Counted from the stretch's first letter, positions 236-30,479 are shown. The stretch: 32,000 nt of DNA from Candidatus Nanopusillus sp. (GCA_036845085.1 DAIUEN010000001.1:1-32000); one strand, 5' to 3'. Numbers and translations are program-made. The notes: a model not told the origin generated them from the sequence alone.

Positions 236-1699
236 TTACCATGTTCTTAATATTGCTGTTATATATGAGCCTATAGGATAATCTATTGGATAGTAAAAGT
301 AAAAAGTATATACCGTTACTCCTTCTGGTATCTTATAACCCAATTCTATTGGCTTTCCTCCACCTTCTGCTATATATTTGTTTAATTCATGTACTTTTCC
401 CTCTTCAGTAATGCAGAATAATCTTAAAAAAGAAATTCCATTTGGACCTAGATGAGGATCATTATATACATTTGAAACAATTATGTAGTTAGTATCTGGA
501 TCTCTTTCTTCAATGACCCACTTAGTTATATTTATCTCCGCACCGATTACACCATACGGAGAACCACATGGAAACGCTCGTAGGTTTGGATTTATCAATG
601 GACAGGTCTTTCCATCTCCTTTTTCTGGACAATTATTAATACATTTGAATCCAAATAAATATACATAATCTGGTTTTTTATTTTTGTTTAAGTAAGAAAT
701 ATATACCCTAGCAACCTCGTGGCCAAATATATCTATATAAACTTGTTTGCAAAATGATGGTATTTTTACGGTACCTCTATAATATGCTTGTACAACGGGA
801 TTTTTATAGTATTTATCTATGTTAATTAAATCTAAATAAACAGCTAGTAATGTTATATCTGTACCAGTTTTATAATTTGGTGGTCCTGGATAATGAACTA
901 AGTAGTAATTATATCTTACAAATTCTGGTAAATTTGGATCTGACTTTGCGTTTATAGCACCAAAAACATTCCATTCTCCCTTTGGACAGTATATAGATGC
1001 TTCAGTAAAGTTAGAATTTGGTAATAATCTGCTTAATGGAATACATCTACCAGATTGTACTGCTTGAATTGTGTCGCCAGTACCTGCTAATAATTGTGTT
1101 ATTCCCCAAGAAGCTATAGAACCATATTGGTAAAAAGGAGCTGTAGCATTAATCCATCCAGCTCCTATCAAATTTTGAGCTACATAATAATTTTTTACAA
1201 ACATGTAATTATAATCAAATTCATACCAGTTCTTTCCATTTTCATCTTTTGGTGGATCAAATCTTCCAGGATCCCATGCTTCGGCTTTTGGACCTTCTAT
1301 GGGTTCTCCTATAACTAAAAACATTTGAACATTCCATCCTGTCAATGGAGGAACTACAAATATTGTTAAATTCCACCTATCTCCATATATTTTATTAAAA
1401 TATTTAGTAACTTCTTCTTTTATATTGACACATCTCTCAGAATTTATACAATATGTTTCATTATTAGAAGTAGAGTAATATGCTATTAAAAATCCTAAAG
1501 ACTTATTTACTGGCGCTATATCTACATATGGTAATAATAAAACAGAATTTTGTAATGTTTTAGAGAATTGACTATATTTTATACTTTCCTCTATATTTTT
1601 TCTATTAGAATTTCCAGATAATATTATATATAACATTAAAGCAGATAATATTGCTCCAACTATTATTGTTAATAATAAATAGTTAATTTGATTCTTCAT
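236..1699 (-). CDS. Hypothetical N-terminally membrane-anchored surface protein (487 aa); last gene of the surface operon
   Basis: Long ORF whose start overlaps the upstream gene's stop by 4 nt. The N-terminus MKNQINYLLLTIIVGAILSALMLYIIL is a single hydrophobic helix. The rest is Tyr/Asn/Pro/Cys-rich with many N-x-S/T sequons. I recognise no family. Confidence 0.6.
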   Translation of the reverse strand: MKNQINYLLLTIIVGAILSALMLYIILSGNSNRKNIEESIKYSQFSKTLQNSVLLLPYVDIAPVNKSLGFLIAYYSTSNNETYCINSERCVNIKEEVTKYFNKIYGDRWNLTIFVVPPLTGWNVQMFLVIGEPIEGPKAEAWDPGRFDPPKDENGKNWYEFDYNYMFVKNYYVAQNLIGAGWINATAPFYQYGSIASWGITQLLAGTGDTIQAVQSGRCIPLSRLLPNSNFTEASIYCPKGEWNVFGAINAKSDPNLPEFVRYNYYLVHYPGPPNYKTGTDITLLAVYLDLINIDKYYKNPVVQAYYRGTVKIPSFCKQVYIDIFGHEVARVYISYLNKNKKPDYVYLFGFKCINNCPEKGDGKTCPLINPNLRAFPCGSPYGVIGAEINITKWVIEERDPDTNYIIVSNVYNDPHLGPNGISFLRLFCITEEGKVHELNKYIAEGGGKPIELGYKIPEGVTVYTFYFYYPIDYPIGSYITAILRTW

Positions 1700-2538
1700 T
1701 TTTTCTTAACTATATATATAATCAACAATATAGAGCCTATTAAAAATGTTATCAAACCTATTATTATTCCAGTAAGGTCTCTATTGGCCTCTTGTTTTAA
1801 TCTAGTAATATTTGAAGTATAATTATACATTATTTGACTTATTTCATTATCTTCTTTCTTTTCCAAACATACGAATCTTCCATTACATTCTATATTTACT
1901 TTTCCTGAAGGACAAAATTTTTCTATAAATATATTATACAGATAAGTTAAATTATATTGTTTTGGATTGATATACCATAAAGTTCCTAATTCTTCTGGAT
2001 TTTTTATATCTTCTATAGATATATTTCTATAACATCCTGCCATACTTCTCCAATAATATATATCGTTTGGAGGATTTATTATGTATGGGGGATCAAAACA
2101 TGGATAGTTATAATTTGAACATCCTTGGTATAACCATGGTTCATTTTGGCATTCTAGCAAATTAGAACAAGTTTTATTTTCAAGAAATAAATCTTGTAAA
2201 AGTTCTATTGGCAATAAATAGTCTACCAAAACTTGAGTACCATTTGGAAATACACAATGTAATTCTGGATAATCTGCTACATATTCTATTTTTGGTGATA
2301 AATTTAGTTTATTGCATAAAGAATATTCTAAACCTTCTAATCCTCTATAAAATTTTTCAGCATCAAAATATATACCATTAATTATACAGTAAGTAGAACC
2401 ATTATCTGCTAAATAAAATTTTCCACCAACATATTCACAATATACTGCTATAGGGTTTCTCAGAGAAAATGTATTATTAACAAGTATTAAAAGTATGACA
2501 AGAAAAGTCATTAACTTTAAAAGAAGATTGTATTTCAT
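1696..2538 (-). CDS. Cys-rich surface protein with an N-terminal signal, a DUF333-like domain and a C-terminal TM anchor ending in KKK
   Basis: RNPIAVYCEYVGGKFYLADNGSTYCIINGIYFDAEKFYRG resembles the DUF333 pattern NPAsvYC...GGk...G...C...G...eW.FfrG. I count 12 Cys. The C-terminus is LTGIIIGLITFLIGSILLIIYIVKKK. Confidence 0.6.
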   Translation of the reverse strand: MKYNLLLKLMTFLVILLILVNNTFSLRNPIAVYCEYVGGKFYLADNGSTYCIINGIYFDAEKFYRGLEGLEYSLCNKLNLSPKIEYVADYPELHCVFPNGTQVLVDYLLPIELLQDLFLENKTCSNLLECQNEPWLYQGCSNYNYPCFDPPYIINPPNDIYYWRSMAGCYRNISIEDIKNPEELGTLWYINPKQYNLTYLYNIFIEKFCPSGKVNIECNGRFVCLEKKEDNEISQIMYNYTSNITRLKQEANRDLTGIIIGLITFLIGSILLIIYIVKKK

Positions 2539-2547
2539 TGATAAATT

Positions 2548-3858
2548 TTATATAGTAACATTTTTAAGTCCAACCATTGCCCATCCAAAACCAAATACCT
2601 TCGCAGATACCGGAAATGTACATCCAAATGGGGTCTTTTTTATGTCACAATATGGTACATACATGAAGCCATCTCTATGTATATAACCATAAGCCCTCCC
2701 ATTTATTGATCCCCAAGAATTTTGTATAATCCAACATTCAGAAACACCATAAGCCTGTCTACATATTTCAGAGTTATCATCAAATCCTACCAAAAGTACC
2801 GCATGTCCTCCACAATCATAACCAAAATAGCTAATTAAACAACCAGAAATAGCTATAGGACCATAGCATAATAAATATTTTTTTATAGTTTCCGTGTCTT
2901 TTTCATCTGTAGAAAATGCTATGATATCTGCAGATTTTATTTTATATTTTAAATTGAATTTCGAAGGATCTTCACATACAGCTCCACAGACATTTGCATT
3001 ATAAGCTCTTGGAGCTCCACTACTGGAAGGACAATTTCCTAGTCTATATGGATTTTCATCTTCTGAAGATACGCCATATCTGTTCATATAACTTATGAAA
3101 GAGTCTACAGGATATCCACCGTCACATCCAAAACTTCTACATGATCCATATGGAGAACCATAATTGCAGCAAACTGTAATTTCTTGTCTAGATATCCTTA
3201 AGTTCATATTAGGTTTGTCATTTCTTATCATATATACAGAAGCAACTAAGTTTGCTGCAGCATTGGCCCAACAATTTCCACATATCCCTTGATTTTGAAC
3301 TGGTGGTAAATAATTTTTTCCATTTACATTACCCCAAAAAAATCTTTTTTGTCCATTGTATTCAAATAAACATCCTTCTTTATTCATTTGATTATTGTTA
3401 TTATTTTCGTTATTATTTTCATTGTTACTTTCTTTTTCTTCTGTACTTTCGTTTCCAATTATATTAAATATGTCTACTAGTGGTTGGGGTGTAGAAACGT
3501 TAATTATTATGTAAGGTGGATTTATATAAAAGTTTATTTCTTTTCCTTCTTTATTAATTAAGGAAACATTTTCTGGCAATATAATTGAGAAATTTTTACC
3601 ATAATACTCAAAAATTAGACTATTATTTTCTTTATATACTAATACACCTTCTGGAATATTTAATAATATAATATAGTTGTACGGAAAGGAATACATTGCA
3701 TATACCAAATCTTGTAAGTTGTTTAAATAATTTTGAAATAAAATATATTCTTGTTGTTTTTTTGTATTATAACTATATGAAAAATATATCATTAAAGCCA
3801 ATCCAACAATTAATAATAATATACCAACGTTTAATATATTTAATTGAGATCTATTCAT
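2548..3858 (-). CDS. Membrane-anchored papain-like cysteine protease (peptidase family C1) with an N-terminal TM helix, an unknown domain and an Asn-rich linker
   Basis: Papain motifs are intact: VQNQGICGNCWANAA (Gln190, Cys196), GCDGGYP, CGGHAVLLVGFD (His352) and IIQNSWG (Asn380). The N-terminal anchor is NILNVGILLLIVGLALMIYF and the linker is SNNENNNENNNNN. Confidence 0.85.
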   Translation of the reverse strand: MNRSQLNILNVGILLLIVGLALMIYFSYSYNTKKQQEYILFQNYLNNLQDLVYAMYSFPYNYIILLNIPEGVLVYKENNSLIFEYYGKNFSIILPENVSLINKEGKEINFYINPPYIIINVSTPQPLVDIFNIIGNESTEEKESNNENNNENNNNNQMNKEGCLFEYNGQKRFFWGNVNGKNYLPPVQNQGICGNCWANAAANLVASVYMIRNDKPNMNLRISRQEITVCCNYGSPYGSCRSFGCDGGYPVDSFISYMNRYGVSSEDENPYRLGNCPSSSGAPRAYNANVCGAVCEDPSKFNLKYKIKSADIIAFSTDEKDTETIKKYLLCYGPIAISGCLISYFGYDCGGHAVLLVGFDDNSEICRQAYGVSECWIIQNSWGSINGRAYGYIHRDGFMYVPYCDIKKTPFGCTFPVSAKVFGFGWAMVGLKNVTI

Positions 3859-3882
3859 AATGAAAATATAATTAAAAAGTTT

Positions 3883-4341
3883 TTAAGTCTTTATGGGTAA
3901 TAACGTTATTGTCACCGTATCTGGTTTTGTTTTTTCAATCAATAGGTTTAGTATTTGATAATCTTTTCCATAAAAAGCGTAATAATATGTTCCGTTTTTA
4001 TAGTATTTTAATGTTTTATCTTCAGAGTTTATTTCTATTTTACAAGTAGACTTGTATGTATGATTTTTGTTATAATTTCCATAATTTATAGAACATATCA
4101 ATTCATAGTCTCTAGATAAAACAAAATTCAAATATTTATATGCATAAAAGTCATAATATATTTTAGTTTCGTTAATAGAATAGCAAACTCTTTCTATATA
4201 TTTATATAATATTTGACATTGATTTATTTGTTCATATAAATTCTTAGTTTGGGTATTTATATTTAGAAATTTATAATATAGTCCTAAAGATATTGCAAAT
4301 ATGGCAATTCCAATACCTATCCAAAGCCATTTATCCATCAT
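3883..4341 (-). CDS. Small N-terminally anchored hypothetical protein (152 aa); surface operon
   Basis: 4-nt start/stop overlap with the upstream gene. N-terminal helix WLWIGIGIAIFAISLGLYY. No recognisable domain. Confidence 0.5.
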   Translation of the reverse strand: MMDKWLWIGIGIAIFAISLGLYYKFLNINTQTKNLYEQINQCQILYKYIERVCYSINETKIYYDFYAYKYLNFVLSRDYELICSINYGNYNKNHTYKSTCKIEINSEDKTLKYYKNGTYYYAFYGKDYQILNLLIEKTKPDTVTITLLPIKT

Positions 4342-4745
4342 TGTAATTCTAATTCAATATATTGACCATTATATTTGATTATAACAAAACTTTCATCTTT
4401 TATTGTAAATGTACATCTTTTCATTACTACATCTGGATTATAGCTTTTTACAAGGTCTAACAATTCATCGCAGTTTATATCTTCTCCTTTATATTGTACA
4501 ACATAACAAGTACCAATCTTTTTTTGATTATAGCATGAAATAATATTTAGGGCTAATGTATTTGGATTATCTACATTTCTTTGTACATTTACATCGGCAG
4601 TATTATTTTTATTAAACATTGTGTCTATATAACTAGAAGCATTTGTTTTAAATTTTACTATTAAACCGATTAGCGTTGCTGTTACAATTAGTCCCATAAT
4701 TATTAAAAAAGTATATTTTATAGGATCTTGACTTTTCATTGCCAT
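4338..4745 (-). CDS. Small N-terminally anchored hypothetical protein (135 aa); surface operon
   Basis: Overlaps both neighbours. N-terminal helix YTFLIIMGLIVTATLIGLIV. Confidence 0.5.
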   Translation of the reverse strand: MAMKSQDPIKYTFLIIMGLIVTATLIGLIVKFKTNASSYIDTMFNKNNTADVNVQRNVDNPNTLALNIISCYNQKKIGTCYVVQYKGEDINCDELLDLVKSYNPDVVMKRCTFTIKDESFVIIKYNGQYIELELQ

Positions 4746-5221
4746 AATATTATTTTACTTTCATTGTATATTATAAATATACTTCTCATTGGATAAAATT
4801 CATTGCTATTATTTGAGGAATAAAAGTCTAATCTATCAGGATTAAATTGAGAATACTTATTTACATATTCTTTTATTTCGTTAAAGTTTATTATTGTATC
4901 ACTATTGCTTATATAAAAGTCATAACACAATGAAAATAATAAATCTGAACCGTAATATTTGTTATAGCAACTAACAATTAAACCAGTTATAATCTTTAGT
5001 ATTTCATCTTTATTGGAGGAATTTATTTTTATTTTTTCTGTATTTGGATAATAATCTTTACATTCTGGAGAAAATGCTTTTTGGGTGGCTAGCTGACTAC
5101 AATAATAGTTTTGAGATTTACTTAAGAATAAAGTATAAATCATATATATTAATGTTGCAATTGAAAATAATGCTATTATTAGTATAAATATTTGATCAAT
5201 AGTTAAATCACTTCTTTTCAT
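4736..5221 (-). CDS. Small pilin-like N-terminally anchored hypothetical protein (161 aa); surface operon
   Basis: N-terminus MKRSDLTIDQIFILIIALFSIATLIYMIY is a short basic leader followed by a hydrophobic helix. It resembles the N-terminus of the first operon gene. 4-nt overlap with the upstream gene. Confidence 0.5.
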   Translation of the reverse strand: MKRSDLTIDQIFILIIALFSIATLIYMIYTLFLSKSQNYYCSQLATQKAFSPECKDYYPNTEKIKINSSNKDEILKIITGLIVSCYNKYYGSDLLFSLCYDFYISNSDTIINFNEIKEYVNKYSQFNPDRLDFYSSNNSNEFYPMRSIFIIYNESKIILWQ

Positions 5222-5502
5222 TTGTAAGTAATATTACCTTGATATATATAAATTATTCTGTATCCTTCTGGTATTTCAATTCCATTTATAGTACAATTAC
5301 CCCTAAGATAACCTTTTTTTTGAACGACTCTATAATAACTTTCATTATAATATCTATATATATCAATACAAGTTATAATAGATTCTTCTTTTTCTTCTGT
5401 TAAATTCTTAATTTTACTCAGATAATAGAAAGAAAATATAGCTCCTATTAATATTAATATAAAGGATAAAGTGATCCAGTAATAGTTATATTGATTTTTC
5501 AT
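5218..5502 (-). CDS. Small N-terminally anchored hypothetical protein (94 aa); surface operon
   Basis: N-terminus MKNQYNYYWITLSFILILIGAIFSFYYL shares the MKNQxNY start with the 487-aa protein. 4-nt overlaps on both sides. Confidence 0.45.
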   Translation of the reverse strand: MKNQYNYYWITLSFILILIGAIFSFYYLSKIKNLTEEKEESIITCIDIYRYYNESYYRVVQKKGYLRGNCTINGIEIPEGYRIIYIYQGNITYK

Positions 5503-7469
5503 ATTTGGAAAGACGTTGGTATATATGGGCCAAATATTGTATTTACGGCTATTAAACCAAGAGTGGAAAATATTACATAGAATATTGTACCAACTATTAA
5601 GTTTCTTCCTATATAATAATATATCATTGTTTCATCGAATCCGTATTTAATACCTGCTGTGAAAAAAGAGGTTATTATTACAAATTCTATGAAAAATATA
5701 CCAATTATTGCTTGGAAATATGATGGGGGAATTAAATTAGCTAAATTAAATGTTGAAATTATTAATTGAGATAAATCTGCAGCCCCCGATAGACCAAAAG
5801 CTGCGCTAATGGTCTGGAAAAAATACGCTATTGCAAATAGCATAGATATTATTGCACTATTAAATATTGTTACTAAAGAAGACATAAATGGTACTATACT
5901 TTTTGATACATTATCTAATAACCCTATAACTTCATCTAACATTCTTCTTACCTGAATTCTTATATCTACAACTTGCTCTAAATTCTTAGATACGTTATAA
6001 CATATTTGAGATAAAACTTTAGGTCCTTTATTTGTGGAATATATAATTAGCTGTAATGTTTCATAAATAATTTTGGAAGGATAATAATTAATAGATCCAT
6101 AATTTTTGTCGAATATTGATTGTATTAGATTTAATCCTTTCCTTAAATTAAATATTGTGAGCTTTAAAAAATTTTCTAATATTCCTGAAAGTTTTATAAT
6201 CTTATAATTTTGATATGTTTTTTCTAATACTATTTCCATTGGATATCCATCTTCTAATAATGATGCAAACTCGTATACTATAACAGGGAATTCAAATTCC
6301 ATTTCTTCTATTTCATTAGCTCTTTTAACCTTTTGGAAGGAATTTAAATAAAAATAAGATCCTATAGATAATCCAATACCTAATGGTAGAGTTAGCATTA
6401 TTAATGCATTTATTACAGATCTATCTTGAAAAATAAAGTTAAGATAAGTGGATAGAGCTCCTTCTGGAATATAAAGTAATTTTATTGATATTTGTGCTAA
6501 ATGATATATTGCAGGAATTGATAATGTAGCAAATAATATTATGAAAGGAAAGATTGATACTTCTTTATTTCCAATTTTAACTCTATTCTTTTTTGGTAAG
6601 TCTTTAGCTAATGAGAGATCTGGAGTTGAAAATGCGAATGGATTTTGAGATAATAAATTTTGTATAACTAAAAAAGTTAATATTGGTAAGATAATTATAT
6701 ATCCAAATGCTATAAAGTAAAAACTAACATTATTTAAAAGGAATACCGACATTATTGGTAGCATAAGTATACTAACAATTGGCAAAACAATTAAAAAAGA
6801 AGTTATAGCAACAGCAGGCTGTTTTAGTTTTTCTACATATTCATACGATTTTTGGTAAGCTTTTTTTAGTATCCAAGATAATAATCTATCTAATAGCGCA
6901 TTTATTTCTTCCTCAGTTCTTCTATATTTTATATTTAATAAGTGAGACATTATATATACAAAATCTGGTGATAAATAGAACCATCTTATTGCATAATATT
7001 CTAAAGCTTCTTCTAATATTCTAAATCTTTTGTTTTCTAAATCATATAATAATTTTTTAAAATCTGTTGCTATGATACCTTTCATATAATATGCTACGTA
7101 TTGTATTGCTTTTTCTAAATTTGGATTTCTCTTTAAATATAAAACTAAGTATAAAGTAACCCACACAGATTCTGAAGTTGCAGCAATTTTTACTATTTTT
7201 GTATAAAATATGGGAAAATATGCTAAATAAAAATCTATGATTAATAATGCAATTAGTAAAGAAAAAGCAAATTGAAAAGAAATAAGTGATAATATAAAAT
7301 ATAATATAAAAGATAATATTAATAGAAATAAAACTGATGAAAAAATATTTGTAGAAGTAGTTTCTAGTTTATTTAACCATAAATTAAAATTATAAATTTT
7401 TTTAAGTTTTCCGGGAGGGTCTATTTTAAATAAAGAAAAAGTATTATAAAAAAATTCAAAAAAATTCAT
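5499..7469 (-). CDS. Polytopic membrane protein, FlaJ/TadC/PilC-like (putative type IV filament platform protein)
   Basis: 656 aa with about 9 predicted TM helices. Two large soluble helical segments (roughly aa 91-215 and 376-530) sit between TM bundles, the architecture of archaeal FlaJ/TadC (two T2SSF-type repeats). The assignment rests on architecture and loose motif resemblance only. Confidence 0.5.
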   Translation of the reverse strand: MNFFEFFYNTFSLFKIDPPGKLKKIYNFNLWLNKLETTSTNIFSSVLFLLILSFILYFILSLISFQFAFSLLIALLIIDFYLAYFPIFYTKIVKIAATSESVWVTLYLVLYLKRNPNLEKAIQYVAYYMKGIIATDFKKLLYDLENKRFRILEEALEYYAIRWFYLSPDFVYIMSHLLNIKYRRTEEEINALLDRLLSWILKKAYQKSYEYVEKLKQPAVAITSFLIVLPIVSILMLPIMSVFLLNNVSFYFIAFGYIIILPILTFLVIQNLLSQNPFAFSTPDLSLAKDLPKKNRVKIGNKEVSIFPFIILFATLSIPAIYHLAQISIKLLYIPEGALSTYLNFIFQDRSVINALIMLTLPLGIGLSIGSYFYLNSFQKVKRANEIEEMEFEFPVIVYEFASLLEDGYPMEIVLEKTYQNYKIIKLSGILENFLKLTIFNLRKGLNLIQSIFDKNYGSINYYPSKIIYETLQLIIYSTNKGPKVLSQICYNVSKNLEQVVDIRIQVRRMLDEVIGLLDNVSKSIVPFMSSLVTIFNSAIISMLFAIAYFFQTISAAFGLSGAADLSQLIISTFNLANLIPPSYFQAIIGIFFIEFVIITSFFTAGIKYGFDETMIYYYIGRNLIVGTIFYVIFSTLGLIAVNTIFGPYIPTSFQI

Positions 7470-7478
7470 TATCTAAAT

Positions 7479-8258
7479 TTACGAAGTTCTTTTTGCACCA
7501 CCAGAATAAGAATTTAATATATGTTCTGGAATATGAGTTAATACATCACATAGAGGCAGAATATTTACATCCCCAGTAAATCCTAATTCTTTACATTCTC
7601 CACTTGCTTCTACATTTAGACTTCTTGTTTCGTCATCTATGACTATATTGAATTCTACTCCGTCACATTTTGTTGTACTATAATAGTTTAGTACGTTCTT
7701 AATTGCTTTAAATATTTGATTTTCTATCCAAGTAGGTATTCTACCACCACATGATCTTTGAGGTCCAGGATTTAATATTTTTGAAGGATTTGAGAATGAA
7801 ATAGATATAGAATTTTCTCCAAATTCTATATTAGAATATTGACCAAATACTTCTTTTGTAGCTTTATCTGGATCAAAATTTAAATCAAATATATAGTATT
7901 TACACATTATTTGCATACAGTAAACTGGAGTCAAAGAATATCCTTTATAAGAACAGGCTGTATCTCTTCCATATTGTTGCATTACAACAGAACATGGTAC
8001 AGAATCTGCACAAACGTAATAACCACTTGTTAGCTCTGTAAATCCTCTTCCAATTGCTACATATCTTTGACAAAATTCTACTGGACTGTTACATACTTCA
8101 GAACATGTAGAAACAGCTTGTTGTATTTCTGTATTAGCTATAGTACCTACTTTTGAGGCTTGCTGTGAAAACATTCTTAATGCAATTACTACTATTACTA
8201 ACATTACAATTATTATAAATACTAATTGTATAGCCATGTCTAATGCTCTTTTCCTCAT
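7479..8258 (-). CDS. Cys-rich secreted/anchored protein with a pilin-like N-terminus (259 aa); first gene of the operon
   Basis: N-terminus MRKRALDMAIQLVFIIIVMLVIVVIAL has a basic leader, a small residue and then a hydrophobic helix, like a class III signal peptide. I count 12 Cys in the extracellular part. A TATA-like element lies upstream. Confidence 0.55.
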   Translation of the reverse strand: MRKRALDMAIQLVFIIIVMLVIVVIALRMFSQQASKVGTIANTEIQQAVSTCSEVCNSPVEFCQRYVAIGRGFTELTSGYYVCADSVPCSVVMQQYGRDTACSYKGYSLTPVYCMQIMCKYYIFDLNFDPDKATKEVFGQYSNIEFGENSISISFSNPSKILNPGPQRSCGGRIPTWIENQIFKAIKNVLNYYSTTKCDGVEFNIVIDDETRSLNVEASGECKELGFTGDVNILPLCDVLTHIPEHILNSYSGGAKRTS

Positions 8259-8281
8259 AACAATACTAGAGGTTTCGAATC

Positions 8282-8299
8282 TTATAAACTTTATATATT
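8282..8299 (-). promoter_or_regulatory. TATA-like promoter element for the surface operon
   Basis: The minus strand reads AATATATAAAGTTTATAAG. The TTTATAAG centre lies about 27 nt upstream of the ATG at 8258, consistent with a leaderless or near-leaderless archaeal transcript. Confidence 0.35.
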
Positions 8300-8312
8300 G
8301 TGAATTTATAAA

Positions 8313-8720
8313 TTAATATCTTATTATAAAAGAAAATTCTTTTTCTTCTCTTATTTTTTCAATTACTTTTCTTTCTATATCAATAGCTGATTTTTCTGAA
8401 TTGATTGCTATAGTTCTACTATCTATGTAAGTGCTTTTTCTTATTACAATACTATTTTTATCTGAAAAAATTAAATTTTTATGGCCGTATGCGTAAAATT
8501 TGTCTATAATGTCGTCAACTTTTATTATTATTTCTATTTTGTTTCCATTTAGTAAATATTCTTTTAAATCATTTGGTAAATCACTTGCAGAATGGGAGGC
8601 CTTTATTCCTATTATACAGTCTCCTCTTTTTGTTAAATAGTTGTCTTTAGTAATTTCTAAGGTAGATTTGTGTGTTGCTCTTATATTTTTATGTCCATAA
8701 ACCTTAATTACGAATTCCAT
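8313..8720 (-). CDS. DUF371 family protein
   Basis: HKNIRATHKSTLEITKDNYLTKRGDCIIGIKA matches my recollection of the conserved archaeal DUF371 N-terminal motif (H..T.E.T.d..LT.rGDCI.G). Confidence 0.6.
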   Translation of the reverse strand: MEFVIKVYGHKNIRATHKSTLEITKDNYLTKRGDCIIGIKASHSASDLPNDLKEYLLNGNKIEIIIKVDDIIDKFYAYGHKNLIFSDKNSIVIRKSTYIDSRTIAINSEKSAIDIERKVIEKIREEKEFSFIIRY

Positions 8721-9573
8721 TTAAATATTTCAATATATCTCTCATTACATTTTTACCAACATATTTTTCAAAACCTTCAAATTGAAATATGTGATGTATG
8801 TCTATTACATAATACTCATTATCTTTTATTAATATGTCGAAGGCAAATATTTGTAAATCAAGTTTTTCAGAGATTTTATAACATATTTCTTTTAATTCTT
8901 CATTTAGTTCAAATGGTTTTCCATATCCGCCCTGGCTTATATTAGCTTTAAATGTTCCTTGATTTATTCTTTGCATACCCCCATATGGTTCCCCTATGAA
9001 TATTATTCTTACATCTTTTTCATATGGTATATATTTCTGGAAAATTAAAAATGGAAGCTTTCTTATATTTTCTGGATTATTCATGAAGAAATCTTTTAAT
9101 TCTTCTCTATTATTAATTAAATATACAAATTCTCCTCTATGTCTTAGAGAATGTTTTATTACTAATGGATAACCAATATATTTTTCTATAAGATGTAAAT
9201 TATTCATAGAATATATCTTGATAAATTTTGGTATATTTACAATTTTATTAACGCTATCATACATCAAAGTTTTATCTATTAGTCTGTACTTTTTATATAT
9301 GCCATTTATTATGATTTTTCCATTTTCATCTAAATATTTCGCTAAAAAATTTGTATCATATTTTGTTGATGCGCCTACAAAAAAATAGTAGATATCATCT
9401 TTAAGTATATCTTCGTTAAAAGGATATGTTATTCTAGATTTTAATTCTATTATTTTTATATTTTTGAAGTTTGCTATTTCTTCCTTTAATCTTCTAATTC
9501 TATAATCTCCATCATAATAACTTCCAATTAAAATTGTAATATTTGCCATAATTTTTATAGAAAAATTAGTCAT
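8704..9573 (-). CDS. ATP-grasp family ligase (RimK-like)
   Basis: ATP-grasp signatures are present: GYPLVIKHSLRHRGEFVYLI, FLIFQKYIPYEKDVRIIFIG, FKANISQGGYGKPFEL and FAFDILI. The true start could be the internal Met at 9549. Confidence 0.7.
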   Translation of the reverse strand: MTNFSIKIMANITILIGSYYDGDYRIRRLKEEIANFKNIKIIELKSRITYPFNEDILKDDIYYFFVGASTKYDTNFLAKYLDENGKIIINGIYKKYRLIDKTLMYDSVNKIVNIPKFIKIYSMNNLHLIEKYIGYPLVIKHSLRHRGEFVYLINNREELKDFFMNNPENIRKLPFLIFQKYIPYEKDVRIIFIGEPYGGMQRINQGTFKANISQGGYGKPFELNEELKEICYKISEKLDLQIFAFDILIKDNEYYVIDIHHIFQFEGFEKYVGKNVMRDILKYLNGIRN

Positions 9574-11484: not shown

Positions 11485-13293
11485 ATGTCTTCCGAAGTTT
11501 ATCTAGATGATATCTTTATAGGATATGTAGATAATCCGTTAGAGTTTATTGAGAAATTTAAAGAAAGTAGAAGAAAAGGTGTTATTCCATATTTTATCAA
11601 TATAGGATATGACGAAAAAACCAATACAGTTCATATTTCTGCTAGAAAAGGTAGATTACTGAGACCCTTAATTGTTGTAAAAAACGGAAAACCTCTATTA
11701 ACTGAGGAACATATAGAAAAATTGAAAAAAGGTGAGATTAGATGGAAAGATTTAGAAGAACAAGGAATTATAGAGTACTTAGATCCTTTGGAAGAAGAAA
11801 ATGCTGTTGTTGCTTTGGAAGAGAAAGATATAAATGAAAATACAACGCATCTGGAATTATCTCCTTTGGTTATATTCGGTATTATAACTTCTTTAGCTCC
11901 GTTTTCGAATCATAATCAATCTGCTAGATTAAATAGGGGAATAAGGCCTATGAAACAGTCTCATGCTATTTATTCTTTAAACTACCCCATTAGATTTGAT
12001 ACTGATATATCTGTTGCATATTATCCTCAAACTCCAATTGTTAGAACTTTTTCTCATGAAATTTTCAAAGAACAAGATGCTATAGGACAAAATGTCATTG
12101 TTGCGGTAATGACTCAAGAGGGTTATAATATAGAGGATGCTATTATTCTTAATAGAGCCTCTGTAGAAAGAGGGTTATTTAGATCTGTATATTTTAGATC
12201 ATATGAATTAGAAGCATTGAAATATCCTAGTGGACTACAAGATGATATAACTATACCAGAACCAGATGTTTATTTATATAGAGGAAGAGATAAATACAAA
12301 TATTTAGAAGATGATGGAATTGTTGCATTAGAGTCTTATGTTAAAGAAGGTGATGTACTTGTAGGAAGGGTTTCTCCTCCAAGATTTAGTGGATTGGTAT
12401 CTGAAAGTTTAACTGGTTCTCTTGGAAAAAGGGATACTTCTTTAGCTGTTGAATATGGACATGAAGGTTATGTAGATTCTGTAATTTTAACCGAATCTGG
12501 AGATGGAAATTTATTAATAAAAGTTAGATTGAGAAGTTTAAGAATTCCTGTTTTAGGTGATAAATTTGCTGTCAGGCATGGACAGAAAGGTGTTGTTGGT
12601 ATGATTGTAGATGAATCAGATATGCCATGGACAGCTTCTGGAATAAAACCGGATATAATTTTTTCACCTTTTGGTATTCCTTCTAGAGAAACGGTGGGAT
12701 TGTTACTAGAATTGCTTGCTGGAAAAGTGGGAGCTTTAAGTGGAAGATGTGTTGATGGTACTCCTTGGTTTGGTGAAAAAGAGGAAGACTTAAGAAAAGA
12801 GTTACTAAGATTAGGTTTTAGAGAAGATGGAACAGAAACAATGTATAATCCTTGGACAGGTGATGAATTTAAAGTTAAAATATATATTGGAAGCTTATAT
12901 TACATGAGATTGAAACATATGAGTAAAAACAAATTACAAGTTAGAGCAATAGGACCTGTTACTTTGTTAACGAAACAACCTACTGAAGGAAAATCTAAAG
13001 GTGGTGGTCTTAGGTTGGGAGAAATGGAAAATCTTGTTTTAGCAGGTCACGGAGCTTCCATTTTATTAAGAGAAAAATTCTCCTCTGATGACTGGGTTAT
13101 ACATGTATGTGAAACTTGTGGTTCCATAGCTGTTGAAGATAAAGCTAGAAATAGAGTTTACTGTCCAGTATGTAATGAAACAGAAAAAATATCAAAAATT
13201 AAAACATCTTATGCCTTTTTTGTTCTAATTAGAGAATTGATGTCTTTAGGTATATGGCCAAGACTTAAACTAAAGTATAAATTTGAAAAATGA
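11485..13293 (+). CDS. rpoB1: DNA-directed RNA polymerase subunit B' (C-terminal part of split Rpo2)
   Basis: GDKFAVRHGQKGVVG, PDIIFSPFGIPSRETVG, GGLRLGEME and a C-terminal Zn ribbon CETCG...CPVC. Confidence 0.96.
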   Translation: MSSEVYLDDIFIGYVDNPLEFIEKFKESRRKGVIPYFINIGYDEKTNTVHISARKGRLLRPLIVVKNGKPLLTEEHIEKLKKGEIRWKDLEEQGIIEYLDPLEEENAVVALEEKDINENTTHLELSPLVIFGIITSLAPFSNHNQSARLNRGIRPMKQSHAIYSLNYPIRFDTDISVAYYPQTPIVRTFSHEIFKEQDAIGQNVIVAVMTQEGYNIEDAIILNRASVERGLFRSVYFRSYELEALKYPSGLQDDITIPEPDVYLYRGRDKYKYLEDDGIVALESYVKEGDVLVGRVSPPRFSGLVSESLTGSLGKRDTSLAVEYGHEGYVDSVILTESGDGNLLIKVRLRSLRIPVLGDKFAVRHGQKGVVGMIVDESDMPWTASGIKPDIIFSPFGIPSRETVGLLLELLAGKVGALSGRCVDGTPWFGEKEEDLRKELLRLGFREDGTETMYNPWTGDEFKVKIYIGSLYYMRLKHMSKNKLQVRAIGPVTLLTKQPTEGKSKGGGLRLGEMENLVLAGHGASILLREKFSSDDWVIHVCETCGSIAVEDKARNRVYCPVCNETEKISKIKTSYAFFVLIRELMSLGIWPRLKLKYKFEK

Positions 13294-15965
13294 TGAACGA
13301 GATTTTTCCTAAAAGAATAGGATTCATACAATATTCATTATTGAGTCCTGACGCGATTAGAAAAATGTCTGTAGCTAAAATTATTGTTCCAGAACTATAT
13401 GACGAAGAAGGAATGCCAGTGAGAGGTGGTTTAATGGATTTAAGACTTGGTGTTGTAGATCCTGGTCTTGTATGTGAAACCTGCGGGAAGAGTGTTGGTA
13501 AATGTCCTGGTCATTTTGGCCATTTAGAGTTAGCAAGGCCGGTATTTCATATAGAATTTATTCCAATAATTAAAGAACTTGTTAATGCAGTATGTACAAA
13601 TTGTGGTAGGGTTAAATTGACCGAAGAGGAAATTGATTTTGCAGAGAAAAAAATTGAAAAATATAGAAGAAATAGGAACTGGAGGCTATTAGATAAATTT
13701 TTAAGAAAATATGTCTATTATAAGGCAAAAAAAAGATTGAAATGTCCGCACTGTGGATTTGAAAATCAAAAGATAGAATTCAGAAAGCCATATATATTTT
13801 ACATTAAGACACAAGACGGAGAAAGAAGAATATTTCCTACGGAAATAAGGGCTATATTTGAGAAAATACCTGACAGAGATGCTTTCGTTTTAGGATTTCA
13901 TCCAGTTTATGCTAGACCTGAATGGACGATATTGACCGTTTTACCAATACCTCCAGTTACAATTAGACAGTCTATAATATTAGAAACTGGAGAAAGATCT
14001 GAAGATGATCTTACTCATAAGCTTGTAGATATAGTTAGATCAAACCAAAGATTAAAGGAAGCTATAACAACCGGAGCTCCTCAGACAGTAATTAGAGAAT
14101 TATATGATCTGCTGCAATATCATATTTCTACATATTTCCACAATAATGTTGCTGGTTTACCAGTAGCAATTCATAGATCTGGGAAGCCAATAAAATCTCT
14201 TGTAGAGAGAATAGTTGGTAAAGAAGGTAGAATAAGATATAATTTACTTGGAAAGAGAACAAATTATAGTGCAAGAGCTGTTATATCCCCAGATGTAAAA
14301 ATAAAATATAACGAAGTTGGAGTTCCTATTAAAGTTGTAATGTCTTTAACAATTCCTGAAAGAGTTACAGAATATAATATAGATAAATTAAAAGAATATG
14401 TACTTAATGGTCCTAATAAGTATCCTGGGGCGAATTATGTTATTGCTCCTGATGGTAAAAGGAGGGTTATAACTGAAGAAAATAAAGAAACACTTGCGTC
14501 TCAATTAGAACCTGGATGGATTGTTGAAAGGCATATATTAGATGGAGATATTGTGTTATTCTTAAGGTATCCATCTTTACACAGATTATCTATGCAAGGA
14601 CATTATGTTAAGGTTCTTCCTGGCGATACATTTAGATTACACCCCGCAATTGTTAAACCATATAATGCAGATTTTGATGGAGATGAAATGAATATATTTG
14701 TACCTCAAAGTGAAGAGGCTAGAGCTGAAGCAGTGTTATTACTAGAAGCATCTAATCATGTAATATCTATAAAACACGGAGAATTTATGGTTGGAGCAAT
14801 TCAGGAAGCAATTACTGGTTTATACTTATTGACAAAAGACAATCCAGAAATACCAATAGATATTGCAATGCAATTAGTATATTGGTCTGGAAATAAAGAG
14901 GTATATATAAATAAATTAATAAGATTCATTAAAAAAGCAAGAGAAGAAAATAGAGATTATTTGACTGGATATGAAATAGCATCAGTATTTTTACCGGATG
15001 ATTTAAACTATAAAGATGATAAAATTACAATAGAAAATGGAGTTATTGTTGACGGATATCTAGATTCTTCTTTAGTAAAAGCAGAAAAAGGAAAATTATT
15101 TGCTTATGTATATGTAAATTATGGAAAAGATATTGCTTCCGATTTAATTAACTCATATTTTTTACTAGGGGTTTATTATCAGTATATATTGGGAATTACT
15201 ATGAGTATTTCAGATCTAGATTTACCTGAAGAAGCCAAATTAGAGATAAATAACATAATAGAAGAAACGATGAAGAAGATAGAAAAGATATATGATGACT
15301 TCAAAGAAGAAAAATTAGAAAGAATACCTGGCAAAACATTAAAGGAAACATATCAATTAATGACAATTCATGAAATATCAGGATCTTTAACACAAATACA
15401 GAAGGTATTAATGAAATATATGAAAAAAGATACCGGAACTTACGTAATGTCTATTACAGGAGCAAGAGGAGACTGGACAAATATAACAAAAATGGTGGGA
15501 TCTCTAGGTTTTCAAGTATTTAGAGGGAAATTCATAGAATTTGGATATAATGATAGGAATCTATCTATATTTCCAAAGGGATTATACCATCCTCTTTATT
15601 ATGGTTGGGTTGTTTCATCATTCTTAGATGGTTTAAAATCTTGGGAGATGTTTTATCACTCACTTACCGGAAGAGATTCTTTAATGGATACTGCTATAAG
15701 AACGGGACAATCTGGATATTTCTATAGAAGATTATCTCATAGTTTATATGAATTATATGTAAGTTCTAATTTGGTTGTAAAAGATAATTTTGGCAGAATA
15801 GTACAATTTTTATATGGGGATGATGGTATTGCAGTACATAAAACACCATCTGGAAAAATTGATATTAACATGTTTATCGAAAAGGCTTTAAAAATGTATT
15901 CTGAAAATAAGAAGAAGGATGGAGATACCAAAAAAACTACTAGAAGAACTAAGAGAAAAAATTAA
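13290..15965 (+). CDS. rpoA1: DNA-directed RNA polymerase subunit A' (Rpo1N)
   Basis: Catalytic NADFDGDEMN motif, Zn-binding CETCG...CPGHFGH and RYPSLHRLSM. ATGA overlap with the rpoB' stop. Confidence 0.97.
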   Translation: MMNEIFPKRIGFIQYSLLSPDAIRKMSVAKIIVPELYDEEGMPVRGGLMDLRLGVVDPGLVCETCGKSVGKCPGHFGHLELARPVFHIEFIPIIKELVNAVCTNCGRVKLTEEEIDFAEKKIEKYRRNRNWRLLDKFLRKYVYYKAKKRLKCPHCGFENQKIEFRKPYIFYIKTQDGERRIFPTEIRAIFEKIPDRDAFVLGFHPVYARPEWTILTVLPIPPVTIRQSIILETGERSEDDLTHKLVDIVRSNQRLKEAITTGAPQTVIRELYDLLQYHISTYFHNNVAGLPVAIHRSGKPIKSLVERIVGKEGRIRYNLLGKRTNYSARAVISPDVKIKYNEVGVPIKVVMSLTIPERVTEYNIDKLKEYVLNGPNKYPGANYVIAPDGKRRVITEENKETLASQLEPGWIVERHILDGDIVLFLRYPSLHRLSMQGHYVKVLPGDTFRLHPAIVKPYNADFDGDEMNIFVPQSEEARAEAVLLLEASNHVISIKHGEFMVGAIQEAITGLYLLTKDNPEIPIDIAMQLVYWSGNKEVYINKLIRFIKKAREENRDYLTGYEIASVFLPDDLNYKDDKITIENGVIVDGYLDSSLVKAEKGKLFAYVYVNYGKDIASDLINSYFLLGVYYQYILGITMSISDLDLPEEAKLEINNIIEETMKKIEKIYDDFKEEKLERIPGKTLKETYQLMTIHEISGSLTQIQKVLMKYMKKDTGTYVMSITGARGDWTNITKMVGSLGFQVFRGKFIEFGYNDRNLSIFPKGLYHPLYYGWVVSSFLDGLKSWEMFYHSLTGRDSLMDTAIRTGQSGYFYRRLSHSLYELYVSSNLVVKDNFGRIVQFLYGDDGIAVHKTPSGKIDINMFIEKALKMYSENKKKDGDTKKTTRRTKRKN

Positions 15966-17037
15966 AGATTTACCAGAAGAAAAGCAAAGAGAAATAGAAG
16001 AAGAATTTATAAATTTCTATAAAAAATTTTTAATAGATCCTGGTGAACCTGTGGGGATTATTGCATCTCAATCTATTGCAGAGCCAACTACTCAGATGAT
16101 ACTAAAGTCATTCCACTTTGTTGGTGGTGGTTTTGAATCTAAAGCTTCTTTGGGTTTGCCAAGATTGTTAGAAATAGCTGATGCAAGAAAAAAAGTAAAA
16201 AATAAGGTTACTAAAATATATTTAATAGAAGAATATAAAAAAGATTATCAAAAAGCATATGAAGTTGCTTTGAGAATTAAAGAAGTTGTTTTGGAAGATT
16301 TAACTTCTGAAATAGCTTTGGATATATTCGAAAATAAGATAATTATATCATTGGATGAAAAAAAATTAGAAAAAAATAATCTAAGCGAGGAAGAAGTTTA
16401 TAACATATTAAAAAAGAAATTAAAAAAATATAAAGTAGAGCTAGAAGGAGGAAATATAGTCATATTTGCTGAAAAAATAAAATCAAAGGATTTGTATTTG
16501 CTTAAAAACAACATAAAGAAAATACACATAAAAGGTATACCTGGAATTAAAGATGTTACTATAAAAAGGGAGGATGAAGAATATGTTATATACGCATCTG
16601 GTTCTAATTTAATGGAACTAATGAAAATACCAGAAATAGATTATAGAAAGATATATACTAATGATATAAAAGAAATAGAAAAAGTTTTTGGTATAGAAGC
16701 AGCTAGGGAGGCTATATTTAGAGAGCTAGTAAAATTATATGCTGAACAAGGTTTTAAAGTAGATCCAAGACATTTCGCATTATTAGCAGATGTTTTAACC
16801 TGGCATGGAGAATATCTCGGTATCAATAGATATGGTCTACAATCTGAAAAGGCATCGACATTATCTAAAGCATCATTTGAAGTACCTATTAGGATATTAA
16901 TGACTGCTGCTTTAAGAGGGGAAGAAGATCCTGTTAGTTCATCGATAGATAACTTAATAATGAACCAAGTTATTCCGCTTGGTACTGGTCTATATGACAT
17001 ATATTATAAAGGAGAAATGAATAAAAAAGTTTCATAA
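15919..17037 (+). CDS. rpoA2: DNA-directed RNA polymerase subunit A'' (Rpo1C)
   Basis: GEPVGIIASQSIAEPTTQM (trigger-loop region) and the C-terminal LMTAALRGEEDPVSSSIDNLIMNQVIPLGTG. With the only available ATG start it overlaps the rpoA' 3' end by 47 nt. Confidence 0.93.
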   Translation: MEIPKKLLEELREKIKDLPEEKQREIEEEFINFYKKFLIDPGEPVGIIASQSIAEPTTQMILKSFHFVGGGFESKASLGLPRLLEIADARKKVKNKVTKIYLIEEYKKDYQKAYEVALRIKEVVLEDLTSEIALDIFENKIIISLDEKKLEKNNLSEEEVYNILKKKLKKYKVELEGGNIVIFAEKIKSKDLYLLKNNIKKIHIKGIPGIKDVTIKREDEEYVIYASGSNLMELMKIPEIDYRKIYTNDIKEIEKVFGIEAAREAIFRELVKLYAEQGFKVDPRHFALLADVLTWHGEYLGINRYGLQSEKASTLSKASFEVPIRILMTAALRGEEDPVSSSIDNLIMNQVIPLGTGLYDIYYKGEMNKKVS

Positions 17038-17049
17038 ATATACCTAAAA

Positions 17050-17325
17050 ATGGTCTCGTTTGATGATATAAAAAGAATGATTAATATGGAGAAAAATAGA
17101 GTAATATTAGGAACAAATATGACTATAAAAATGATTAAAAATGGAAAAGTTGAAAAAGTATTTTTAGCAAAAAATGCTCCTGAAGAAATTAAGAGAGATA
17201 TATTATACTATTCAAAGCTAGGTAATTTTGAAGTAGAGGAACTAAATTATACCAATGAAGAAATAGGGATTATATTGAAAAAGCCTTTTAAAATATCTGT
17301 TATTTCTATATTAAAAAATGGGTAA
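17050..17325 (+). CDS. rpl30e: Ribosomal protein eL30 (L30e)
   Basis: [47 protein letters not shown]...[11 protein letters not shown] fits the L30e/L7Ae-fold family. It sits in the canonical position after rpoA''. Confidence 0.9.
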
Positions 17326-17746
17326 TGGTTTGTTTGCTGCTAAAAAACTAATTGAAAAGAGAAAAAAATTTAGATGGGCTAAAAAAGAGTGGAAAAGGAG
17401 AATACTGAGATTGAAGGAAAAATATGATCCATTTGGAGGCGCGCCAATGGCTTCTGGAATAGTATTAGAGAAAGTTCAGATAGAAAAAAGGCAGCCATAT
17501 TCTGGTATGATAAAATGTGTGAGAGTGCAGCTAAAGAAGAATGGAAAAGTTGTTACTGCATTTGCACCAGGAGATAAGGCAATAAAGTATATAGATGAAC
17601 ACGACGAAGTTTTACTAGTATACATAGGTGGTCCTAAAGGTAGGGCTATTGGTTCTATTCCTGGAGTAAGGTATAAAGTTGTATTAGTTAATGGTCAACC
17701 ACTAGAGCTTTTAAGAACTGGAAAAATAGAAAAAGCAAGGAGGTAG
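17318..17746 (+). CDS. rps12: Ribosomal protein uS12
   Basis: [14 protein letters not shown]...[21 protein letters not shown]...[31 protein letters not shown]. It overlaps the rpl30e end by 8 nt. Confidence 0.93.
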
Positions 17747-17748
17747 AA

Positions 17749-17767
17749 ATTTTTATTTGTTATTTTT
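17749..17767 (+). terminator. T-tract terminator candidate after rps12
   Basis: ATTTTTATTTGTTATTTTT lies immediately after the rps12 stop. Archaeal termination commonly uses oligo-T tracts. Confidence 0.3.
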
Positions 17768-17788
17768 CAGTAAATAAATTTTGTAATT

Positions 17789-17800
17789 AAATATATAAAA
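17789..17800 (+). promoter_or_regulatory. TATA-like element upstream of the inserted membrane-protein gene
   Basis: AAATATATAAAA is centred about 26 nt upstream of the ATG at 17821. Confidence 0.35.
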
Positions 17801-17820
17801 TTTCTTTACTAAATTATAAA

Positions 17821-18636
17821 ATGGTCTTTAGCGATACTATCATGGCCTTTGTGTATTATTTTGGATTTTTGGTAGTATCATTAGTAGTAGCATTGATAGT
17901 AGGATTTGTAGCATATAGAGTATTAGATAGAGTATTAGATAGATTAATAGAACCATACTATAATAAGTTTTATGAAGAATTAGGAACAAAGAGACCAGTA
18001 GATTTTTCAACAACGGTATCTGTAATATTAAGTGTATTATTTGGAGTATTGTCTTTTACTTGGGCATTTAACAATTTAATGAGTATAGTATCTTTAGATT
18101 ATTATACGATATTGACTCCATATATTGAAGTAACTTTAGCTGCAGCTGCTACAATATTTGGAGTTACTGGAGTAATATTTCTAATATTTGTAGGTACATT
18201 CTTTGCACTATTCTTTAGCTGGTACATATATAGGATGGTTTCTCCATATAGAGAAGATGTAGCATCACTACTAAGATTATTGCTATTCATAGGTTTAGTA
18301 TATGTTGTTTCTGTATCTTCATTAAGTGCATTAAACCTTGATGATGCAGAAATATTTGGATACATATTGGGAGCATTTGTAGTATTGTCAATAGGATGGG
18401 CAATTATAGAATTTGTTATGGAAAAAGTATCGAATACAAAGTCATTTGAAGAAATAAAACCATTCTTAGAATATTTCCTATTTGGAATCTTTATACTTTC
18501 AGCTTTATCCGTTTTAACCTTAGGATATAATGCAATTTCACAATCAACAATAAATATATTTGCCTGGGCCTTTGTTTTGATATTAGTAATAGCATTGGTA
18601 CCTTTTGTTATAAAGGCAATAAAATCTATATATTAG
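17821..18636 (+). CDS. Polytopic integral membrane protein of unknown function (271 aa)
   Basis: About 7 hydrophobic helices. Codon usage matches the neighbouring genes. No motif I recognise. Confidence 0.65.
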   Translation: MVFSDTIMAFVYYFGFLVVSLVVALIVGFVAYRVLDRVLDRLIEPYYNKFYEELGTKRPVDFSTTVSVILSVLFGVLSFTWAFNNLMSIVSLDYYTILTPYIEVTLAAAATIFGVTGVIFLIFVGTFFALFFSWYIYRMVSPYREDVASLLRLLLFIGLVYVVSVSSLSALNLDDAEIFGYILGAFVVLSIGWAIIEFVMEKVSNTKSFEEIKPFLEYFLFGIFILSALSVLTLGYNAISQSTINIFAWAFVLILVIALVPFVIKAIKSIY

Positions 18637-18667
18637 TTTTTTAACCTTTTTCTTAATATTTTTTTAA

Positions 18668-19270: not shown

Positions 19271-19284
19271 AAGATTATTTTCTA

Positions 19285-20115: not shown

Positions 20116-20164
20116 TGTTATAATGGAATACTTTAGAATATTTATATTTTTCTCTAAATAGAAT

Positions 20165-20223
20165 ATATTATCCCCACATGCCATGCACTAGGGATAATAT
20201 GAACTAGTTCCTCCATGTGGGGA
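20165..20223. repeat. GC-rich nested and alternative inverted repeats
   Basis: TCCCCACATG (20171-20180) pairs with CATGTGGGGA (20214-20223). Inside it, ACTAG (20187-20191) pairs with CTAGT (20204-20208). Alternatively, ATATTATCCC (20165-20174) pairs with GGGATAATAT (20191-20200). All were read directly from the sequence. Confidence 0.7.
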
Positions 20224-29115: not shown

Positions 29116-29165
29116 ACTAAAAAGATTTTGACAAATTTTAAAAAATATAACTATGTTATATATTA

Positions 29166-29780: not shown

Positions 29781-29781
29781 G

Positions 29782-30458: not shown

Positions 30459-30479
30459 GGTAATATAAAAAATTATTAT

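Follow-up and report, generated by a model that had tools for sequence, protein, structure and literature searches.

We examined a 32,000-nucleotide stretch of DNA from Candidatus Nanopusillus sp. (GCA_036845085.1 DAIUEN010000001.1:1-32000; hereafter the window), focusing on a closely packed minus-strand operon at positions 236-8312 that encodes predicted anchored surface proteins and a large polytopic membrane protein. The window has a G+C content of ~27%, and the closest relatives of its proteins belong to the Nanopusillaceae/Nanoarchaeota, including Candidatus Nanopusillus, Nanobsidianus stetteri Nst1, and strain YN1. This supports the original prediction, made without database searches, that the organism is a genome-reduced ectosymbiont, and it places that organism in the family Nanopusillaceae. 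The nine open reading frames (ORFs) assigned to the operon by that prediction, designated here g1 to g9 in the order of transcription, were all recovered, each at its predicted position. The measured junctions between them (+9, -4, -4, -10, -4, +24, +9, and -4 nt, with negative values denoting overlaps) agree with the proposed coupling through overlaps of 4-10 nt or gaps of at most 24 nt. The operon does not, however, end at position 236 as had been supposed. A tenth gene, g10, begins with an ATG at 242-240 that overlaps the g9 stop codon (ATGGTAA) and runs off the window, leaving only its 5' part (1-242), and two more pilin-like genes, g11 and g12, lie beyond g10 in relatives. A TATA-like element, TTTATAAG, was found on the same strand at 8281-8288, centred ~27 nt upstream of the g1 ATG as had been noted, and it aligned to TTTATAA in the upstream regions of five of six orthologous loci. 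Because the DNA is AT-rich (25% GC), this is weak evidence for a promoter element.

The second gene, g2 (5499-7469), encodes a 656-aa polytopic protein for which a FlaJ/TadC-like architecture had been proposed. This was borne out at the level of its family. The close homologues of g2 are all annotated only as hypothetical or putative membrane proteins, and a PDB search with the single sequence returned noise only, so that a profile was needed. A profile of 18 homologues retrieved 1446 cluster representatives among 1.84 billion proteins. T2SSF (PF00482) was matched by 25 of 66 sampled family members (best E = 8.2e-10), and Spore_III_AB by three of the 66. When ten members were scanned singly, two T2SSF matches were obtained at 16.6 and 19.6 bits, below the gathering threshold of 25.2 bits. 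The full-length T2SSF profile fell on either of two repeats in different members, corresponding to g2 residues ~107-238 (6756-7151) and ~400-533 (5871-6272); the match of member P0035, spanning profile positions 4-125 of 125, maps to repeat 1 and that of member P0039 to repeat 2. The two halves of g2 also align with each other (hhalign E = 0.002 over 114 columns), as expected of the duplicated T2SSF architecture.

Structural comparison pointed in the same direction. With a profile of 134 family sequences, the best PDB match was the GspF/EpsF cytoplasmic domain (E = 0.007). The AlphaFold2 model of g2 had a pLDDT of 85.4 and a pTM of 0.84, and the only high-probability Foldseek matches to this model were the EpsF/OutF cytoplasmic domains (probability 0.95-1.00). 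Their target-normalised TM-scores were 0.46-0.69, with 0.67 and 0.69 for the two best (rmsd ~3 Å); 2vmb_A, for example, was placed on repeat 2 with a probability of 1.00 and a target-normalised TM-score of 0.67. The similarity to T2SSF-type proteins that the FlaJ/TadC-like assignment calls for was thus found both by family-level profile and by Foldseek probability.

Outside the Nanopusillaceae, g2 orthologues were examined in four complete type IV pilus-like loci of Woesearchaeota type (L003, L005, L007, and L015), comprising three DPANN-type contigs and one Woesearchaeota metagenome-assembled genome (MAG). The platform proteins in these loci share 19-26% identity with g2 (E = 1e-24 to 1e-55). 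In all four, the platform gene lies directly 3' of a gene for a T2SSE ATPase of 707-796 aa, a slot that is occupied by g1 in the Nanopusillaceae. The platform gene is followed by a run of 2-12 small proteins with N-terminal hydrophobic helices, as in the operon. In L003, L005, and L015, but not in L007, K-[KR]-G class III sites are present on most of these small proteins, some of which have just 39-56 aa, and a Peptidase_A24 gene stands at the end of the L003 and L005 loci. The Nanopusillaceae operon differs from this arrangement in lacking the adjacent ATPase and peptidase genes and in having large, Cys-rich subunits, one of them with a protease. Given the T2SSF matches in the family, the GspF-type best PDB match by both sequence and fold, the internal repeat, and the ATPase-adjacent orthologues, we conclude that g2 is a divergent type-IV-filament (TFF) platform protein of the T2SSF/FlaJ/TadC type. 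A separate observation concerns the same loci: just upstream of the prepilin peptidase gene, L003 (16167-16310) and L005 (19544-19663) encode an extremely Lys/Arg-rich peptide of 39-47 aa with the conserved motif KKHPYK.GG.

We then compared 30 Nanopusillaceae loci, counting the window, which were drawn from the YN1 genome (L001 and L014), four MAGs, the Nst1 contig (L016), and 21 metagenome contigs. The search used a narrow platform alignment and found mainly Nanopusillaceae. The order RimK – DUF371 – g1 – g2 … g12 was collinear in all 30 loci as far as each contig reaches, and the cluster was therefore neither absent nor scrambled in related genomes. The sole rearrangement occurs in Nst1, where g11 and g12 are inverted and lie ~4 kb away, indicating that the distal part of the cluster is a separable module. 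On the Nst1 contig, the inverted g11 and g12 were found together with a gene for a 345-aa membrane protein (16949-19975, minus strand), and ribosomal protein, UDG, and arginase genes lie between them and g1-g10. It was also noted that the RimK-like ATP-grasp and DUF371 genes of the window (8313-9573, minus strand) overlap by 17 nt and are co-directional with the operon; this pair adjoins the operon in every Nanopusillaceae locus and not in the Woesearchaeota loci. A comparison of two Nanopusillus species gave dN/dS values of 0.09 to 0.40 across all 12 operon genes, the lowest for g2 (0.09) and the highest for g1 (0.40), against 0.13 for flanking housekeeping genes. By this measure all of the operon genes are under purifying selection, with the platform gene g2 the most constrained. 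The collinearity in 30 loci, together with these values for every gene, takes the operon beyond chance.

The first gene, g1 (7479-8258), encodes a 259-aa protein with 12 Cys residues and the N-terminus MRKRA↓LDMAIQLVF. In six genomes, the N-terminus of g1 follows the pattern [KR][KR][GAS]↓[ILV][DE]MA[IV][QE]L[IV]F. The classical archaeal class III site, recognized by PibD/FlaK, consists of a small residue at -1 preceded by a basic one at -2; g1 accordingly carries a canonical class III signal and is read as a prepilin-type subunit. Its orthologues in the Nanopusillaceae loci share 32-45% identity, with nine invariant and 12 near-invariant Cys columns, and it has no Pfam or NCBIfam match. A homologue search started from g1 returned g1 alone, the word filter being too coarse for so fast-evolving a protein.

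In seven of the nine products in the window (259, 94, 161, 135, 152, 436, and 487 aa), a single hydrophobic stretch of ~20-25 aa comes after a brief polar or basic leader at the N-terminus, as had been described. Besides g1, these are g3 (5218-5502; 94 aa, MKNQ leader, two invariant Cys, four N-x-S/T sequons), g4 (4736-5221; 161 aa, four invariant Cys), g5 (4338-4745; 135 aa, MAMKSQ leader, four invariant Cys), g6 (3883-4341; 152 aa, four invariant Cys), g7 (2548-3858; 436 aa), and g9 (236-1699; 487 aa, MKNQ leader), which has the largest ectodomain. The leaders of g3-g7, g9, g11, and g12 conform to M-[KR]-x-[QED] followed by ~20 hydrophobic residues. The Gln in these leaders is reminiscent of the +1 Gln of EppA-type pilins. 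Pfam, NCBIfam, and PADLOC scans of the nine products returned nothing for seven of them, and a defence-system reading of the operon was rejected on the PADLOC scan. The g9 family comprises 23 homologue clusters, all nanoarchaeal and limited to the Nanopusillaceae, with Nst1_645 among them. Of the subunits, only g9 was submitted to structure prediction; the AlphaFold2 model built with 23 homologues had a pLDDT of 46.6 and was unusable.

The composition of the ectodomains was assessed against 17 housekeeping proteins of the same window. They were enriched in Cys (3.7% vs 0.5%), Tyr (9.2% vs 5.2%), and Asn (9.3% vs 5.5%), in agreement with the original prediction, and the 12 Cys noted in each of the 259-aa and 280-aa products were confirmed. 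The two polytopic proteins, g2 and g10, contain just 0-2 Cys each. The invariant Cys columns are even-numbered in each protein (2, 4, 4, 4, 12, 12-14, and 8), which suggests structural disulfides in the extracellular domains. Sequons of the N-x-S/T type were also in excess overall, with 30 observed against 16.5 expected from composition and 1.74 per 100 aa against 0.58 in the housekeeping proteins. The abundance of sequons that had been described thus holds for the set as a whole, although the 259-aa g1 protein has none. This excess suggests that the ectodomains are N-glycosylated.

A papain-family protease domain had been recognized in the 436-aa product, and this was confirmed with high significance. 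In the g7 protein, an N-anchored pilin-like module at residues 1 to ~119 is joined by an Asn/Glu-rich linker to a Peptidase_C1 domain (residues 182-394; E = 7.6e-25, 88.7 bits against a cut-off of 20.7; 2677-3315). The catalytic residues Gln190, Cys196, His352, and Asn380 are intact and align with those of dipeptidyl peptidase I (1jqp), and no I29 prodomain was detected in g7. The protease domain is anchored through the g7 module in the window, L010, L011, L012, and Nst1. In YN1 it is instead found on the g6 module, as part of a 579-aa protein (L001 13201-14940), and in L009/L013 it is absent with the rest of the operon intact, the g7 module being alone at 143 aa. As a stand-alone protein, this N-terminal module has 141 or 143 aa in L001 and L009. 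The coordinates of the g6 and g7 modules in L009 are 13201-13971 and 14928-15359; the g6 orthologue there carries a 100-aa extension with a weak DUF4625 match (E = 2.3e-4). The papain domain is thus mobile, being carried by different pilin-like anchor modules in different genomes.

The remaining two products have different topologies. The g8 gene (1696-2538) encodes a 280-aa protein with 12 Cys and nine sequons, for which the predicted Sec-type N-terminal signal and C-terminal transmembrane anchor were both confirmed. The DUF333-like domain that had been recognized in it (residues 26-65; 2344-2463) held up in part. The match to PF03891 is below threshold in g8 itself (21.3 bits vs 25; E = 3.4e-4), but it recurs at E ≤ 0.1 in six of nine g8 orthologues and paralogues (best 1.3e-4). 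The g10 protein is a polytopic membrane protein of ~390-400 aa, and full-length orthologues were located in L001 (18264-19466), L010 (17350-18516), L011 (17616-18827), and L012 (17596-18807), as well as in L016. These orthologues have no Pfam or other family match and share the motifs LHTR, G[IL]H, GE..E, and IHG and a C-terminal His. On these motifs, g10 may bind metal or haem, or may be an unrecognized enzyme. Two specific roles for g10 were discarded. It has no conserved Asp pair and no GxGD motif, its conserved residues being His, and it was therefore rejected as a cryptic A24 prepilin peptidase. An archaeosortase acting on g8 was dropped in turn, as the g8 orthologues share no PGF/PEF-type C-terminal motif.

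Taking these features together, we consider it reasonably probable that the operon encodes a derived TFF module, similar to an archaeal type IV pilus, in which a platform powered in trans assembles a short fibre or stalk that displays ectodomains and a protease. Here g2 would be driven by one of the several PilB/FlaI-family ATPases of nanoarchaeal genomes. The platform would pull the N-terminal helices of g1 and the other N-anchored proteins out of the membrane, and the extracted subunits would be built into a short filament or pseudopilus-like stalk that presents the adhesive ectodomains and the protease beyond the symbiont S-layer, at the contact with the host cell. The g8 protein is a Sec-exported, C-terminally anchored, Cys-rich partner, and g10 a polytopic membrane protein that travels with the set. 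The operon is a candidate for the host-attachment apparatus of these organisms, and may have a role in host attachment or surface remodelling. There is precedent for such an assembly in the Sulfolobus bindosome, where non-pilin cargo with class III signals is assembled by a TFF machine (PMC3047682, PMC3387779).

Supply of the ATPase in trans is possible, since five secretion ATPases are encoded in Nst1 and two in N. equitans (PMC4858521 and its supplement), and we infer that the g2 platform would be powered in this way. The cognate pilins of one nanoarchaeal ATPase clade "could not be identified" (PMC4858521). In Yellowstone Nanoarchaeota, four FlaJ/TadC homologues with a high density of non-synonymous single-nucleotide polymorphisms have been reported (PMC6142677).

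Several observations weigh against a pilus-like module. Of the features of TFF systems, the platform is recognizable at the family level, the class III signal was found in g1 alone, and the ATPase and peptidase are absent from the locus. On its own, g2 has no Pfam match at E ≤ 1 and none in NCBIfam, and the Foldseek E-values of its model were not significant (0.67). As had been noted at the outset, the window contains no FlaI/PilB-type ATPase, prepilin peptidase, or archaellin; family scans confirmed this and gave no match to FlaH either. No T2SSE (PilB/FlaI/VirB11) ATPase and no A24 peptidase (PibD/FlaK/EppA) was found in the 32-kb window or, across the 30 Nanopusillaceae loci, within 10 kb of the platform gene in either direction, a reach that extends to 24 kb on one side for the window. 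The A24 peptidase was likewise undetectable in two nanoarchaea in the survey of Makarova et al. (PMC4858521). At the -1 position, the leaders other than that of g1 have N, S, A, L, V, G, or Y, and because only g1 has the canonical [KR][GAS] site, the other N-anchored proteins may be plain signal-anchors. The small proteins had been proposed to be pilin-like. The canonical signal of g1 favours this, yet none of the operon products matched a pilin profile (Pilin_N, Class_IIIsignal, or archaellin N-terminus). All-against-all hhalign comparison of the ectodomains revealed no paralogy except for the common protease domain, and no homology was detectable between the ectodomains and the Woesearchaeota pilins. 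The proposal of a divergent type-IV-filament-like or surface-display apparatus is therefore upheld by the platform, the g1 signal, and the synteny, and is weakened by the absence of a canonical site from eight of the nine or ten N-anchored proteins and by the lack of an ATPase or peptidase near the operon.

The same gaps would be expected if the operon had ceased to be a filament machine and encoded a static envelope complex anchored in the membrane, an explanation that we consider unlikely but the foremost of the alternatives. The platform would then have been retained in the membrane as scaffold or chaperone once the neighbouring ATPase and peptidase had been lost, and the N-anchored, disulfide-rich glycoproteins, the protease, and g8 would stay as type II or type I membrane proteins, for example as the cone or portal layer of an attachment organelle. 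The absence of both enzymes from every Nanopusillaceae locus agrees with such a complex, as do the degenerate leaders of g3 to g12, the ectodomains that are large for major pilins (up to 487-552 aa), the different, C-terminal anchoring of g8, and the constant presence of the polytopic partner g10. Against this stands the platform itself, which is the most constrained gene of the operon and has kept both T2SSF repeats; in known systems (PilC/GspF), these repeats are the cytoplasmic domains on which the ATPase docks. The retention of the canonical g1 site in six genomes is also difficult to account for unless a peptidase acts and assembly follows, and Nst1 encodes five TFF ATPases.

A type II secretion-like exporter would account for the combination of a T2SSF-type platform with several different pilin-like proteins, which resembles GspF plus GspG-K, and for the hydrolase encoded within the operon. 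In such a device, a pseudopilus piston would drive soluble cargo through the S-layer, to be delivered to the host or set free in the medium. The papain protease, in a released form, would be one such cargo and the DUF333-like protein possibly a second; the Asn/Glu-rich linker between the anchor module and the protease could be the cleavage site. We regard this as very unlikely. The protease is fused to a pilin-like anchor in five lineages and consequently looks like a subunit rather than a passenger, and it is missing in L009/L013 without any other loss from the operon. Archaea have no outer membrane or secretin to cross, and we know of no type II secretion system (T2SS) described in archaea. 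That the locus is an annotation or chance artefact, or the decaying remnant of a pilus locus without current function, might be argued from the many products without family matches and the missing ATPase and peptidase, but it is hardly credible in view of the collinearity in 30 loci from several species, the dN/dS values of the 12 genes, the invariant Cys columns, and the intact catalytic residues of the protease.

Returning to the derived TFF module, we compared the operon with other described systems. The Sulfolobus bindosome (BasEF plus BasABC) is similar in principle only: a TFF platform works with pilin-like proteins that display non-filament ectodomains. Bindosome loci also hold polytopic membrane proteins of unassigned role (PMC4858521, Table S5). 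Unlike the operon, however, the bindosome locus includes an ATPase, BasE; the system depends on PibD and carries solute-binding cargo rather than a protease and Cys-rich proteins; family scans found no solute-binding domain in any operon product. The bacterial T2SS pseudopilus and the minor-pilin/PilY1 tip complexes of type IV pili share with the operon a GspF/PilC-family platform with two T2SSF repeats and a row of non-identical pilin-like subunits, the last of which is a large putative adhesin-like subunit. The operon differs from them in that neither a secretin nor the G↓F-x-x-x-E prepilin motif is present, the locus lacks GspE/PilB, and the subunits show no detectable homology. The archaellum protein FlaJ (arCOG01809; 549 aa in Nst1) belongs to the same superfamily as g2 and is likewise polytopic with two cytoplasmic domains, but the operon lacks archaellins and FlaF/G/H/I. 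The Nanopusillaceae have a separate, bona fide FlaJ and archaellum locus (PMC4858521 supplement, PMC11420986).

A further question is whether the operon is related to the attachment organelle of the Nanobdellales, which has been visualized by cryo-electron tomography in YN1, N. aerobiophila, and YN4 as a cone with a 20-25 nm portal and a 7-8 nm filament or tube. The proteins of this organelle are stated to be unknown (PMC11420986, PMC11104419, bioRxiv 10.64898/2026.06.04.730037). The organelle and the operon occur in the same clade, and YN1 has both (L001/L014, platform gene YN1_4460). A membrane-rooted thin filament that displaces the host S-layer also fits what a protease-bearing pilus could do. 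On the most far-reaching view, the operon products would form this filament or tube where it lies outside the cell, or else the other, 'rough' appendage observed on free cells. A fibre built from g1 would then be nucleated by the platform and carry the Cys-rich subunits at its tip; the papain protease, fused to a pilin-like module, would cleave the host S-layer and so give the fibre access to the host membrane; and the fast-evolving modular ectodomains would determine host specificity. According to the tomography reports, the filament extends out of the symbiont cytoplasm, where similar 6.6-nm filaments also occur, and this does not fit an extracellular, disulfide-rich pilus. These reports weaken the assignment, and we consider it distinctly unlikely, if worth pursuing as a specific form of the contact-site role.

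Elsewhere in the window, rpoB and rpoA are present as split genes, alongside rpoH and genes for ribosomal proteins. Between the genes for S12 (17318-17746) and S7 (18668-19270) lies an ORF without a Pfam match (17821-18636, plus strand) that encodes a polytopic membrane protein of 271 aa, and its composition is Val/Ala/Gly-rich compared to its Ile/Asn/Lys/Tyr-rich neighbours. Between S7 and the L10/L1/L11 block, at 19285-20886 on the minus strand, a tyrosine recombinase (Phage_integrase, E = 3.8e-42) stands beside an AbiEii-type nucleotidyltransferase toxin (E = 1.3e-10); judging from these family matches, the pair may be a small integrated element or a Xer recombinase beside a toxin-antitoxin gene. 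An oxidative-stress set at 28666-31169 comprises two peroxiredoxins (28666-29115 and 30381-31169), an Fe/Mn superoxide dismutase (29166-29780), and an O6-methylguanine methyltransferase (29782-30282), and its gene content suggests an aerotolerant lifestyle.

It had been stated that no described system has this gene set. Our literature search found no paper describing it, and to that extent the statement stands; as a claim about the category, however, it goes too far. Earlier work has described type IV pilus systems and several FlaJ/TadC homologues in Nanoarchaeota (PMC6142677, PMC4858521), and type IV pilus-like systems are known from archaea more widely, DPANN lineages among them. What is new here is a platform family that is invisible to standard annotation, a pilin gene in place of the ATPase gene within the operon, a set of large, unrelated, disulfide-rich subunits, and the exchange of a papain domain from one pilin-like anchor to another.

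Cultivated members of the Nanobdellales (Nanoarchaeota) use the cone, portal, and filament of their organelle to attach to a single host species. The operon provides a short list of candidates for this contact site, consisting of an overlooked platform and ~10 pilin-like surface proteins that are conserved across the family. A protease that hops between pilin-like anchors would be an unusual display of an enzyme by type IV filament machinery, and it suggests a simple way in which a symbiont of 0.4 µm might break through the S-layer of its host.

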